A stretch of DNA of 12,153 nucleotides, from the UHGV virus genome UHGV-0128831, one strand, 5' to 3'. The notes beneath the pieces were generated by a model. It saw only the letters and a program-made list of their open reading frames with translations. It was not told where the DNA came from and ran no database searches. Positions 1,123 through 10,418 of this stretch are shown here, piece by piece. This DNA is from a virus. Numbering within the stretch: the first letter of the stretch is position 1; every line of letters starts with the position of its first letter. A program made the translations under genes and the position numbers.

Positions 1123-1150
1123 ATTTAACATAATATACATTATGCGCACC
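1123..1150 (-). other. dif: dif chromosome-dimer resolution site (XerC/XerD target), reverse-complement orientation; prophage attL
   Basis: Window 1123-1150 is atttaacataatatacattatgcgcacc, the exact reverse complement of GGTGCGCATAATGTATATTATGTTAAAT, the E. coli dif 28-mer as I recall it (28/28). Confidence 0.85.
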
Positions 1151-1591
1151 AATGGTAAGGATGGCAGAATCTGGCGGGAATCGTTGACACTGGCCGTCAA
1201 CTGGCTACTATCGACAGTGATTCAAAATCATCCGTTTCTCCAAACGAATCAGAATCAAATGTCTGTCAGCAGTAAGTGAACGGCCTGACCTCACCAATCA
1301 GGCCTGTTCATCCAGTTAGTTGGTAAATCTGTACCTGATACACGAGAATCAAACACCACTTCTTCAGTGCCATCACCATGCTCCTGATGTGTCATGAATT
1401 TTTCCATGATAAGGCCCGATGAATGCTGCCGCGCCGAATCAGCCATAACGCTGAAAATGGAAACTGTACGGCTTGGCCAACCCCGGACAGCAACAAAACA
1501 AGTTTTGTCACTGACCGGCGTTATCTTTCAAAACAGACAGTTAACGATTTTTTGTCTGGTGTTTATGCGTGAAATTTCGTGCGTACGAAAT

Positions 1592-1840
1592 TCACCACCA
1601 ATAAACAAACGGACGATGACTGACCGGAAAAGCAATGCCGTCAGCATCATGACCACGCATTACCTGATTGAGAAGCCTTCTGACTTCACGGCGCTCAGGC
1701 CTGGTCATCATCATATTGCGATACCAGGACGGCGATTTATCAAACCATCTGGCACAACTGGCAAAATGTGAACCTACACGACGATAAGACTTAAGGCGGC
1801 CACCGGGAAGTCGGTCACGCGCCTTATTTTTTACAGACAT
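1592..1840 (-). CDS. Hypothetical small basic protein downstream of the secretin gene
   Basis: 82-aa ORF, Arg/Lys-rich. GAGGA lies about 9 nt upstream of the ATG (reverse complement of 1841-1857 is ...ttagaggatttatta). No family recognised. The overlapping plus-strand ORF 1394..1771 lacks an RBS and looks less protein-like. Confidence 0.35.
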   Translation of the reverse strand: MSVKNKARDRLPGGRLKSYRRVGSHFASCARWFDKSPSWYRNMMMTRPERREVRRLLNQVMRGHDADGIAFPVSHRPFVYWW

Positions 1841-1928
1841 AATAAATCCTCTAAGTAACTGAATACCTAGAAGATGTCGTACTGTTCATACCCCATAAAA
1901 GTTAACGCCATAATAAAAATCCATACAA

Positions 1929-3173
1929 TCAGTTCAGGTTGTCCCGGAACAGTTCACCGCTCCTCGCGGCGCTGCGGGGCGTCGCCCTGCTCCGGTCAAC
2001 CTTTCTGACCTGAAGCATCACCATAATATCAGTCTTGTTGCTTTCACTGGTACGGGAACCGAAGAAGCTCCAGCCGGAACTGGCCTTACTGTCTTTCTGT
2101 TCAGCAAGGCCACCAAGTAAAATAATATCACCATCTGCAAGGCTGACTTCGGTTGTTACATCACGCTTGATAAGGGTTGGCGAGTTATTGACGCCGGTTT
2201 CAGTGGTCACAAAGTTGGAAAGCTGCTGCTGAATCTTGAGATCCATTGTCCGACTTTTGATTGATGGCGTCACGTTAAACAAAACACCGCTGGAACGATA
2301 TTCAACGGATTGCGTTGTCGTATTGTTATTCACCGTAACACTGCCCAGTACTGGCACATCAGAGCCGACTGAAAAAGACGCTGAGGCATTATTTTTTACC
2401 CGCAGTCGTGGCGCACTGACAACAGTAAAACGACTGTCGGTTTTCAGCAGATTGAAAATGGCATCAATGGAGCCGGTTCGAATATTGATAAAATTATCCA
2501 GTCCGGCAGCACCAACTGAAATATTGAATTTATCAGACAGAATTTTAGCCGCTAAAAGAATGCCGGAGCCGTCAGACTGCGAGGTCTGAACCTCAAAAAC
2601 ATAACCAGAAACAACCACTTCATCACTCATCGTATCCAGCGAAGTGACCAGTGTTTTCAGGATGGCGATATCCTCTTTCGTACCATAATAAACCAGAATA
2701 TCACCGGTTCGATTGATGTAGTTGCTTGCCCCTGATGAACCTTTTAGCGAATCGTCAGAAATCACGGCTCCACTGTTATTGAAGGAGCCTGAAACGTAGC
2801 CGCCAAGAATATCAGACAGGTAGGCAACAGAACGGTACTGAGGCGTATAAGTCCATGTATAACGTGGCTTAACCGGCTCTTTCGGCGTATAGGGCGCGAT
2901 AAAATCAACACCCTTTTTCGTCCATATTCGAATGTTCATATTGCCAAGATAACGGGTTACAAATTCCCGTTCATCAATATCAGATGTTAACCTGAATGTA
3001 ATCATTCGTTCATCATTAACAAGCTGTGGATCTAGCATATACGGGACTTTAAGCACCTCACTGTAAATAAGAGAAATAGCCTCCGGTAGCTTGACTTTAT
3101 TTAATTCAAGCTCTGACCCTGCGAAAGCACATGAAGAAAATAGTAGCGTTAATGCGAGTAAAATCTTTTTCAT
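1929..3173 (-). CDS. Filamentous-phage pIV-like secretin (outer-membrane export channel)
   Basis: 414 aa with an N-terminal signal peptide (MKKILLALTLLFSSCAFA). C-terminal region DGDIILLGGLAEQKDSKASSGWSFFG...DIMVMLQVRKV resembles the conserved secretin C-domain motif. Its ATG overlaps the TAA of the upstream pI gene by 1 nt (TAATG at 3171-3175), and it is the last gene of the morphogenesis block, as in Ff phages. Confidence 0.65.
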   Translation of the reverse strand: MKKILLALTLLFSSCAFAGSELELNKVKLPEAISLIYSEVLKVPYMLDPQLVNDERMITFRLTSDIDEREFVTRYLGNMNIRIWTKKGVDFIAPYTPKEPVKPRYTWTYTPQYRSVAYLSDILGGYVSGSFNNSGAVISDDSLKGSSGASNYINRTGDILVYYGTKEDIAILKTLVTSLDTMSDEVVVSGYVFEVQTSQSDGSGILLAAKILSDKFNISVGAAGLDNFINIRTGSIDAIFNLLKTDSRFTVVSAPRLRVKNNASASFSVGSDVPVLGSVTVNNNTTTQSVEYRSSGVLFNVTPSIKSRTMDLKIQQQLSNFVTTETGVNNSPTLIKRDVTTEVSLADGDIILLGGLAEQKDSKASSGWSFFGSRTSESNKTDIMVMLQVRKVDRSRATPRSAARSGELFRDNLN

Positions 3174-9304: not shown

Positions 9305-9390
9305 TAACTCCACCGTGGAAAACGACTGTAAAAGCGGTGTGATTTTCATCAACTCAGACATATTAATGGCATATCTTTGAGGATTATAAA

Positions 9391-10320
9391 TTGGCTATAT
9401 TCGAATTATTTTCAAAAAGACAAAAAAAATTAAGAGGTGAAGTAGCTGATGTTTACCAATACACGAATATACCAAATGCATTTCGTGTTCAGGTTGTTCA
9501 TATTGTAAGAGATACTATCGGTGAAGATAGTGACTATGAAACGGAAGCAAGTAAGCTTTACAGACTCGTTCATAAAACGCTGTGTAAGGAATATGGTGTA
9601 TTCTCTCTCAAACAGTATCCTGAATCGAATTTCGGGGCAATTTTTGACTATTTCCTAGCTGAGAGAGATCATGAAAAATGCTTGGATATCATTGAGATAT
9701 GTTTCAAACTGATAGACGGGTATATAAGATCAAATGAGTGGAAATTCAGAGGGTTAGTAAAGCAAAGTCCTGATGATGCTATTGAAGAACTTAATATCAG
9801 GTTTAAAGAAGCAGGTCTTGGATATCAATTTGAGTCAGGAGAGTTGGTTAAAGTTGACTCACAATTCATTCATTCTGATGTTGTAAAGCCTACGCTTCAG
9901 ATTCTTGGTAAGAACAAGAGTTATAACGGAGCAAACGATGAGTTTTTATCCGCCCATGAGCATTATAGACATCAGCGATATAAAGAATGTTTAAATGATT
10001 GCCTCAAATCTTTTGAAAGTCTAATGAAAGCCATACATAAAAAACATTCTTGGCAATTTAATGATACTGACACAGCTAAAAAACTAATTAACAGTTGTTT
10101 GGCAAATAATTTAGTACCTGAATACCTCCAGAATCAATTTTCTTCAATAAGAATTCTACTTGAGAGTGGTATTCCAACCATTCGAAATAAAGAAGGTGGA
10201 CATGGACAAGGGGCAGAAATAACAAAAGTTCCTGAGTATTTAGCGAGTTATACCCTTCATTTAACCGCTACTAATCTGCTGTTTTTGGCTAAATGCGAAG
10301 AGAGTTATACGAAAAAGTAG
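9391..10320 (+). CDS. AT-rich cargo protein, tentatively AbiJ/Abi_C-like HEPN-domain protein (candidate abortive-infection or toxin RNase)
   Basis: 309 aa. TTG start with GAGGA 8 nt upstream. N-terminus MAIFELFSKRQKKLRGE resembles the 'FSKR' start I associate with AbiJ-type proteins. C-terminal R-N-K-E-G-G-H (codons 10183-10203) fits the HEPN Rx4-6H motif. Hand-counted G+C about 27-33% over 9391-9510, against about 47% in hipA (10621-10680) and about 40% in phage genes. Confidence 0.45.
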   Translation: MAIFELFSKRQKKLRGEVADVYQYTNIPNAFRVQVVHIVRDTIGEDSDYETEASKLYRLVHKTLCKEYGVFSLKQYPESNFGAIFDYFLAERDHEKCLDIIEICFKLIDGYIRSNEWKFRGLVKQSPDDAIEELNIRFKEAGLGYQFESGELVKVDSQFIHSDVVKPTLQILGKNKSYNGANDEFLSAHEHYRHQRYKECLNDCLKSFESLMKAIHKKHSWQFNDTDTAKKLINSCLANNLVPEYLQNQFSSIRILLESGIPTIRNKEGGHGQGAEITKVPEYLASYTLHLTATNLLFLAKCEESYTKK

Positions 10321-10353
10321 CTATTGGTTCGCACAATGACGTTATGCTAAAGA

Positions 10354-10390
10354 GGCCGCTGCGGGATTCGATTTTCGCAGCGGCCTTTTC
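10354..10390 (+). terminator. Intrinsic terminator after the cargo gene (possibly bidirectional)
   Basis: Perfect 10-bp GC-rich stem ggccgctgcg (10354-10363) / cgcagcggcc (10376-10385) with a 12-nt loop, followed by TTTTC. On the minus strand the same stem is followed by TCTTTAGC. Confidence 0.6.
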
Positions 10391-10418
10391 AACATAACGC
10401 GTTGACATTATGCGCACC
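10387..10418 (-). other. Degenerate dif-like site (prophage attR): intact XerC-side arm, diverged XerD side
   Basis: 10405-10418 (acattatgcgcacc) is identical to the last 14 nt of reverse-complement dif (XerC arm plus 3 nt of the central region). The in-register XerD side is diverged; a XerD-arm-like 11-mer (tttcaacataa, 10387-10397, 9/11 to ATTTAACATAA) sits 4 nt out of register. Confidence 0.55.

Follow-up and report, generated by a model that had tools for sequence, protein, structure and literature searches.

The locus described here raises the question of how a filamentous phage genome that lacks an integrase came to lie at the dif site of an Escherichia coli chromosome, and whether it could leave it again. 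The window, that is, the whole stretch of 12,153 nucleotides analysed (UHGV virus genome UHGV-0128831), contains a 9,268-bp inovirus genome between two attachment (att) sites. Our results indicate that it is very probably one integrated member of the CUS-1/YpfPhi family (variant NC-Ino) that, having no integrase of its own, uses the host's XerC and XerD recombinases through an attP folded from single-stranded DNA (ssDNA), as in the CTX phage.

Insertion at dif and the origin of the att arms

The left att site (attL) is an exact reverse-complement match to the 28-bp E. coli dif (GGTGCGCATAATGTATATTATGTTAAAT). It is the sole 28-mer of the window within 9 mismatches of dif, with a chance expectation of about 1e-12 according to our own arithmetic, and reads in window orientation XerD arm ATTTAACATAA, central region TATACA and XerC arm TTATGCGCACC. 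Strains 998, NC101 and UTI89 share this attL together with its left flank. The right site (attR), of 32 bp, reads TTTCAACATAA / CGCGTTGACA / TTATGCGCACC, so that both sites present the XerD side first and the XerC side second; its XerC arm is the only other exact XerC arm in the window. The original prediction, made from the letters of the window, had named both the perfect left dif and the perfect right XerC arm, and both are exact matches. Its assignment of the arms to XerC and XerD agrees with the published description of dif, whose left half is bound by XerC and right half by XerD (PMC5357621), with the listed dif sequence (PMC2731167) and with the table of CTX attP sites, in which the arm order is identical (PMC3089051). 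In contrast, its view of the right XerD side as degenerate holds only at the canonical 6-bp spacing, where the sequence (AACATAACGCG) has about 3/11 matches to dif by our own count. The side is not simply degenerate, since a XerD-like arm with 9/11 dif matches is present provided that the central region is taken as 10 bp.

The left site probably serves as a functional dimer-resolution site, and a review of Ypf similarly describes a prophage whose 3' end restores an intact dif (PMC4266046). With a centre of 10 bp and, at the canonical spacing, no XerD arm, the right site should not work as a dif and should be a poor partner in Xer excision. For annotation purposes, the left site should be recorded as the functional dif, and the right site should not be named dif.

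The empty site is found in public genomes. When window positions 899-1150 are joined artificially to 10419-10633, at least 12 complete E. coli genomes contain the result uninterrupted and with 100% identity, and 231 E. coli genomes match it at a coverage of at least 80%; in K-12, dif is followed by the same right flank as in the window and then by hipA and hipB. Insertion at dif and the existence of an empty dif-hipA site, the first claimed and the second proposed as a check beforehand, are thereby confirmed. No integrase or recombinase domain was matched among the 12 open reading frames (ORFs) scanned with Pfam, PHROG and NCBIfam, and a dif-like attP is present. An insertion placed exactly at a Xer site that is empty in relatives is what is seen in integrative mobile elements exploiting Xer (IMEX).

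The positions of the exchange can be narrowed further. A 16-bp identity, ACATTATGCGCACCAA, occurs at 1137-1152 and again at 10405-10420, giving a repeat unit of 9,268 bp, and BLAST alignments with the tandem array of strain NC101 break at the corresponding places (899-10420 and 1137-12153). The crossover must lie within this identity. Which arm belongs to the phage and which to the target can be read from natural markers that public genomes provide in three different Xer sites. In the Y. pestis array, where the host dif differs by one base in its XerC arm, the outer XerC arm is TTATGTGCACC and is continuous with the Yersinia flank, and the inter-copy junction carries the phage arm TTATGCGCACC. 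In the array of the Klebsiella pneumoniae plasmid NZ_CP132684, one end reads ATTTAACATAA-CGTACA followed by the phage arm TTATGCGCACC, and the other end has the XerD arm and 11-nt centre of the phage, followed by the plasmid arm TTAAGCGCACT. These markers confirm the arm partition: in all three targets (E. coli, Y. pestis and the K. pneumoniae plasmid), the centre stays with its own XerD arm and the XerC arm alone is exchanged. Therefore, the crossover occurs at the XerC cleavage point, as in an XerC-first exchange resolved by replication (PMC4246890). By comparison of these sequences, the att sites of the window are hybrids, as the original prediction had reasoned, with a chromosomal XerD arm and a phage XerC arm on the left and a chromosomal XerC arm on the right.

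In the 248-kb IncFIB/IncHI1B plasmid of K. pneumoniae (NZ_CP132684.1), two tandem CUS-1-like copies occupy not a chromosomal dif but a Xer-type site, ATTTAACATAA-CGTACA-TTAAGCGCACT (locus 13102-13129 and 32105-32137). Therefore, the family is able to use plasmid dimer-resolution sites and to travel on large plasmids.

The predicted circular junction (attP2, stem-loop, attP1, then AATGGTAAGG) had been proposed for verification by PCR and is already present in public data, namely at the inter-copy junction of NC101 and in a circular episome of 9,565 bp from the assembly of E. coli TUM14759. This episome (NZ_CP128883.1) is annotated as an untypable plasmid, although it is actually a circular genome of a CUS-1-family phage, and probably represents the replicative form. 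The TUM14759 chromosome has three places that match it.

On the left of the element, the window lacks at its 898|899 junction 1,115 bp of chromosome that are found in strains 998 and NC101 and that hold the remainder of a gene for an AEC-family transporter and a portion of an acetylxylan esterase pseudogene (positions 3899-5013 of comparison locus L001). The junction reads AAGCTT and shows no microhomology. The left flank of the window is colinear with none of the complete RefSeq E. coli genomes, NGF1 and TUM13066 being other length variants.

The second dif-like site and the route of integration

The right site is accompanied by a second, inverted dif-like site (attP2), absent from the original prediction and located 34 nt to its left and in the opposite orientation, which reads GGTTCGCACAA / TGACG / TTATGCTAAAG (9/11, a 5-bp centre and 9/11). 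By our own estimate, such a site is expected by chance about 1.5e-3 times per window and about 1e-5 times this near the first site. Between the two sites lies a stem-loop followed by TTTT, which resembles a terminator for the cargo gene; it was not listed by a terminator scan, whose loop limit is 8 nt. The episome variant retains the stem with a different loop. The phage (+) strand, which is the minus strand of the window and codes for the structural genes, is predicted to fold over 10318-10426 at -32.7 kcal/mol (z = -7.7), with the XerC-type arms paired together, the XerD-type arms paired together and the centre bulged.

In an alignment of 10 sites from six loci (a zot-protein scan of genome contigs returned one locus, from Y. 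pestis), attP2 is invariant and the sequence diverges directly upstream of it. Among these sites only the loop and the bulged centre vary, the latter having 10 or 11 nt, and the ACA beside the XerC arm is invariant, which is what the folded-attP model requires. The attP1 centre has 10 nt here (CGCGTTGACA) and 11 nt in UTI89 (CGAGTCGTACA). Set against the dif centre TGTATA, the centre of the window (TGTCAACGCG) has the first 3 nt in common and the UTI89/Ypf type (TGTACG) has 4. The homology to dif is therefore found only beside the XerC arm, in agreement with the rule for CTX-type phages (PMC3089051), in which the attP1 centre has 12 nt and the attP2 centre 7 nt (PMC3089051). The element thus shares with that type two inverted dif-like sites, one of them with an over-long centre. 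Similarly, both CUS-1 and Ypf are classed with CTX in published work, with inverted XerC/XerD sites (PMC4246890, where they are listed in table 2; PMC4266046; PMC3089051).

Integration would then very probably proceed as follows. On the packaged (+) single strand, attP1 and attP2 would pair as a forked hairpin imitating a single dif duplex. XerC would cut at the boundary between XerC arm and centre, both on the hairpin and on the chromosomal dif; the strands would be swapped, the swap being stabilised by the shared TGT beside the XerC arm, and replication would turn the junction into a prophage. The expected product, which is the one observed in the window, carries at the secretin end a perfect functional dif, made of the chromosomal XerD arm and centre with the phage XerC arm, and on the hipA side a non-functional site, made of the phage XerD arm and 10-bp centre with the chromosomal XerC arm. 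Judging by homology and the literature, this element would be integrated as a single strand, by XerC catalysis only and irreversibly, and would require tandem copies before rolling-circle replication can yield new phage.

The original prediction had instead pictured a single crossover between dif and a simple attP. The arm partition is compatible with this picture, although the second inverted site points to a single-strand-folded attP of the CTX type. A closely similar route is known from VGJ-type phages, in which a double-stranded replicative form integrates through attP1 alone, XerC acting first, and excision by XerC takes place between attL and attR. Such a route would account equally well for the partition of the arms, and a centre sharing only its XerC-side bases with dif is likewise seen in VGJ (PMC4246890); extrachromosomal forms of Ypf have been reported (PMC4266046) and a circular episome exists. 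Nevertheless, an attP1 centre of 10-11 bp exceeds the 6-8 bp usual for Xer sites (PMC5357621), and CTX's 12-bp attP1 is described as unfit for recombination between duplexes (PMC4246890). In addition, the inverted attP2 34 nt away stays the same in every variant as the cargo beside it is exchanged, circles can also arise from rolling-circle replication or from homologous recombination within tandem arrays, and the class assignment cited above (PMC4246890, PMC3089051) is to CTX. We therefore regard duplex integration as unlikely.

Several observations weigh against integration through a folded single strand. The attL and attR produced by CTX-type (single-strand) and VGJ-type (duplex) XerC-first exchange are the same, and prophage structure alone cannot separate them. 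The strand opposite to the (+) strand is predicted to fold at -30.0 kcal/mol, compared with -32.7, which is a weak asymmetry, and the arms of attP1 and attP2 are invariant in the 10 sites compared, giving the hairpin no support from covariation. The plus-strand origin was not located; the only candidate for an f1-like gpII nick site has 3 mismatches, falls within the replication gene and is at chance level. No experiment on the Xer dependence of this E. coli variant was found, and superinfecting Ypf is reported to insert between copies at an imperfect site, which classical models did not predict (PMC4266046).

A third route, of the TLC type, would start from an attP without a real XerD site, a phage XafT-like activator driving an XerD-first exchange that XerC completes. 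The match of about 3/11 on the XerD side at 6-bp spacing, by our own count, resembles the degenerate XerD arm of TLC (PMC4246890), but a spacing of 10 bp reveals a XerD arm with 9/11 matches, and the centre, TTGACA against TATACA in dif, departs from the dif-like centre of TLC (PMC4246890). Moreover, no XafT-type domain was matched among the ORFs scanned, and every product keeps each centre joined to its own XerD arm, as a crossover at the XerC cleavage point gives. This route is hardly credible for the present element.

Returning to integration through a folded attP, the CTX model bears directly on whether the element is still active, as had been suggested from its intact gene set. In that model, integration is irreversible and phage DNA is produced by rolling-circle replication from one origin to the origin of the next copy (PMC4246890). 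Tandem arrays are frequent among the relatives and the window contains a single copy. If the model holds, this lone copy may be unproductive despite its intact genes, and tandem lysogens such as NC101 should be productive; the suggestion of activity is subject to this caveat. A fixed, immobile and defective remnant would also agree with a single copy that yields no phage under the CTX model, with the 93-bp deletion found in a small accessory ORF by comparison with CUS-1/Ypf, and with the observation that deletion of NC-Ino had no phenotype against four lytic phages (PMC12803456). The core genes, however, are all intact and 98-100% identical to those of Ypf, which is experimentally productive (PMC4266046); the identical variant recurs across six source types, often in 2-4 tandem copies, and related strains have empty sites, all of which makes a remnant very improbable.

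Relationship to CUS-1, YpfPhi, NC-Ino and the CTX phage

The element is a single intact copy of a known CUS-1/YpfPhi-family inovirus, in the variant published as NC-Ino, and is thus not new apart from one mildly new point, the accessory slot beside attP2. CUS-1 of E. coli O18:K1:H7 was reportedly described by Gonzalez et al. in 2002, and YpfPhi of Yersinia pestis is said to have been described by Derbise et al. in 2007. With the family known since 2002-2007 and the exact variant named in 2026, the finding carries little weight as a discovery and its value is that of a confirmation.

For CUS-1, our comparison drew on the UTI89 prophage and on reviews. Each of the ten core proteins has its full length and shares 98-100% identity with its counterparts in CUS-1 (UTI89) and YpfPhi (Y. 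pestis), within a near-identical core of about 7 kb for regulation, replication and assembly, as expected for this lineage. The claim of a complete filamentous prophage is borne out by this full inovirus gene set, and the suggested alignment to CUS-1 and Ypf gives about 99% identity. Specifically, UTI89 is 99.1% identical at the nucleotide level over 1380-9323 and from 10324 on, and has the same integration at dif and the same attP2/stem-loop/attP1 block, but it carries a 369-amino-acid (aa) cargo ORF in place of the 309-aa AbiJ-like gene, 93 bp more in a small ORF and a 5-aa indel difference in Zot. YpfPhi is 99.4% identical over 1380-8865 and shares the att architecture, with tandem arrays and an intact dif reconstituted at the secretin end; in contrast, both of its accessory genes beside attP2 differ (135 and 87 aa).

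The closest relative is the NC101 prophage, named NC-Ino in 2026 (PMC12803456), which shares 99.99% identity with the full element (one mismatch) and has the same locus and AbiJ-like cargo. The primers used to check its deletion (PMC12803456) map to window positions 1022-1041 and 10516-10533 and so flank the element. NC101 differs in having two tandem copies where the window has one, and the published size of NC-Ino is 9,335 bp (PMC12803456) versus the 9,268-bp repeat unit measured here.

The element also resembles the CTX phage in its gene order, its divergent RstR-like repressor, its lack of an integrase, its two inverted dif-like sites (one with an over-long centre), its accessory genes beside attP and the tandem arrays of its relatives. 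It differs from the CTX phage in having a replication protein of the Ff G2P family, a secretin gene and no cholera toxin, and its attP1 and attP2 are 34 nt apart compared with about 90 in the CTX phage (PMC4246890).

The core (at least 80%) was found in 99 of 5,426 complete E. coli genomes, at a median of two places per genome and up to 5. The variant of the window occurs at 100% identity in strains of mouse, pig, chicken, dog, human and river origin. A megablast search of the element against a phage-record collection retrieved nothing; CUS-1 and Ypf are evidently not deposited there, so this result is not evidence against a phage origin.

Gene content and the accessory slot beside attP2

The features of the window are collected in Table 1. 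The minus-strand genes follow the canonical inovirus order on a single strand (rep, ssb, small proteins, coat, pIII-like, pVI-like, pI and pIV), including the pI/Zot ATPase, the small coat protein, the rolling-circle replication protein and the ssDNA-binding protein that characterise inoviruses. The production of filamentous ssDNA virions has been reported for Ypf, which is 99% identical (PMC4266046). An Rfam scan of the window returned no family.

Table 1. Coordinates of att sites, genes and other features of the window (strand: +, plus; -, minus;., not stranded)
Feature	Position	Strand	Evidence and remarks
attL, reconstituted sequence-perfect dif	1123-1150	-	XerD arm 1123-1133 and centre TATACA 1134-1139 (putatively chromosomal); XerC arm 1140-1150 (putatively phage)
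16-bp identity	1137-1152	.	BLAST breakpoints against NC101, and sequence
Intergenic region, mostly non-coding, strongly structured	1151-1591	-	Downstream of secretin operon; (+) strand fold -75.4 kcal/mol, z = -4.9
82-aa accessory ORF	1592-1840	-	100% identical in UTI89 and Y. pestis; by position YPO2280a/YPO2281 (position: PMC4266046)
pIV-type secretin (virion export channel)	1929-3173	-	Pfam Secretin 1.5e-24; PHROG 1012 'assembly, protein IV of M13' 1.7e-137
pI/Zot morphogenesis ATPase	3173-4183	-	Pfam Zot 2.1e-26; PHROG 197 1.4e-92; stop overlaps secretin start by 1 base
pVI-like minor coat protein (DUF2523)	4187-4474	-	Pfam DUF2523 1e-20
pIII-like adsorption protein	4487-6199	-	PHROG 3942 4.7e-253, residues 28-570; 98.8-99.2% identical to UTI89 and Y. 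pestis
pVIII-type major coat protein	6264-6497	-	PHROG 2186 virion structural protein 4e-29; Pfam Phage_Coat_B weak, 0.0016
83-aa membrane protein	6532-6783	-	PHROG 3679 1.1e-32; RefSeq name 'membrane protein'
G5P-type ssDNA-binding protein	6786-7103	-	Pfam Putative_G5P 1.2e-52
G2P-type rolling-circle replication initiator	7115-8167	-	Pfam Phage_CRI 1.1e-73, G2P_X_C 3.4e-34; TIGR01629 3.7e-77
Divergent control region, rep/repressor	8168-8338	.	Imperfect 27-nt palindrome 8237-8293 (inverted repeat, 78% complementary)
Helix-turn-helix (XRE/RstR-like) repressor	8339-8785	+	Pfam HTH_3 1.6e-9; PHROG 3557 4.1e-74; weak NCBIfam phage_RstR match
139-aa membrane protein	8885-9304	+	PHROG 4174 1.1e-83
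AbiJ-like 309-aa protein (AbiJ_NTD4 + DUF7014), variant-specific cargo	9391-10320	+	Pfam 8.6e-27 and 1.1e-77; NCBIfam STM4504/CBY_0614 4.1e-137; PADLOC PDC-S32 4.5e-10
attP2, inverted dif-like site	10326-10352	+	Left edge of block conserved in all cargo variants
G+C-rich stem-loop, predicted tip of folded attP(+) hairpin	10353-10386	.	11-bp stem, 12-nt loop; inverted repeat 10340-10363 / 10376-10399, 88% complementary
attR, equivalent of attP1	10387-10418	-	Phage XerD-like arm 10387-10397 (9/11) and 10-bp centre 10398-10407; XerC arm 10408-10418 (putatively chromosomal)
hipA (10497-11819) and hipB (11819-12085)	10497-12085	-	RefSeq annotation of identical sequence in strain 998; usual right-hand dif neighbours

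Some of these assignments can be refined. The structured region between attL and the 82-aa ORF probably corresponds to the inovirus intergenic region, with a packaging signal or a complementary-strand origin. It contains an ORF remnant (1291-1395, minus strand) that is 31 codons shorter than the 65-aa ORF of CUS-1/Ypf, owing to a 93-bp in-frame deletion at window position 1380 (minus strand, region 1291-1446) relative to UTI89 and Y. pestis; about 34 aa are left in the window, against 65 aa in each of UTI89, Y. pestis, the episome and the K. pneumoniae copy. The 82-aa ORF has no Pfam, PHROG or NCBIfam match. The pIII-like protein appears to be the homologue of puvA, whose role is described in PMC4266046. 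Its start in RefSeq (6049, 520 aa) may be too far downstream, as the open frame reaches 6199 and gains a hydrophobic, signal-peptide-like stretch, and the PHROG alignment begins at residue 28 of this longer form. From its position, the 83-aa membrane protein is probably a minor coat or assembly protein. In the divergent control region, the palindrome is a candidate operator, and promoter-like hexamers occur on the minus strand at 8323-8296 and 8257-8229 (consensus matches only); the divergent repressor has been likened to rstR of the CTX phage (PMC4266046). Ypf lacks the 139-aa membrane protein, which the window shares with the UTI89, episome and K. pneumoniae variants.

A module corresponding to window 6780-8785 (ssDNA-binding and replication genes and, in some cases, the repressor) is shared on its own with other E. 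coli prophages at 90-94% identity, in line with the published finding that Ypf and UPphi phages have exchanged genes II and V (PMC7307601).

The segment upstream of attP2 (9324-10323) is swapped wholesale among phages that are otherwise 99% identical, and conservation resumes 2 nt before attP2. Its contents differ in all five variants compared, that is, four fillings plus the Ypf variant. UTI89 has the 369-aa ORF, without a Pfam match (locus L004, 10124-11331); the episome has ORFs of 71 and 288 aa (L006); in the K. pneumoniae copy, a DpnII/MboI-fold protein is accompanied by DUF6953 (L007, 21395-22537); and in Ypf (L005), which has the 135-aa and 87-aa ORFs, the 139/140-aa membrane-protein gene is replaced too. 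In the CTX phage, ctxAB occupies the equivalent position. Two of the fillings are defence-like, namely the AbiJ-like protein here and the DpnII/MboI-type nuclease-fold protein with DUF6953 of the K. pneumoniae plasmid copy. It is possible, although doubtful at present, that the slot between the 139/140-aa gene and attP2 is a hot-spot of cassette exchange through which CUS-1/Ypf inoviruses move defence-like genes among Enterobacterales.

The AbiJ-like protein carries an R-x5-H motif at residues 265-271, and a sequence search of the PDB with it gave nothing meaningful. If it were indeed an abortive-infection toxin, the filamentous prophage would be a carrier of anti-phage defence; the plating of the four lytic phages was unchanged by the deletion of NC-Ino (PMC12803456). 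The AbiJ-like gene is found in 18 of the 5,426 complete E. coli genomes, at 36 places and in up to four copies per genome.

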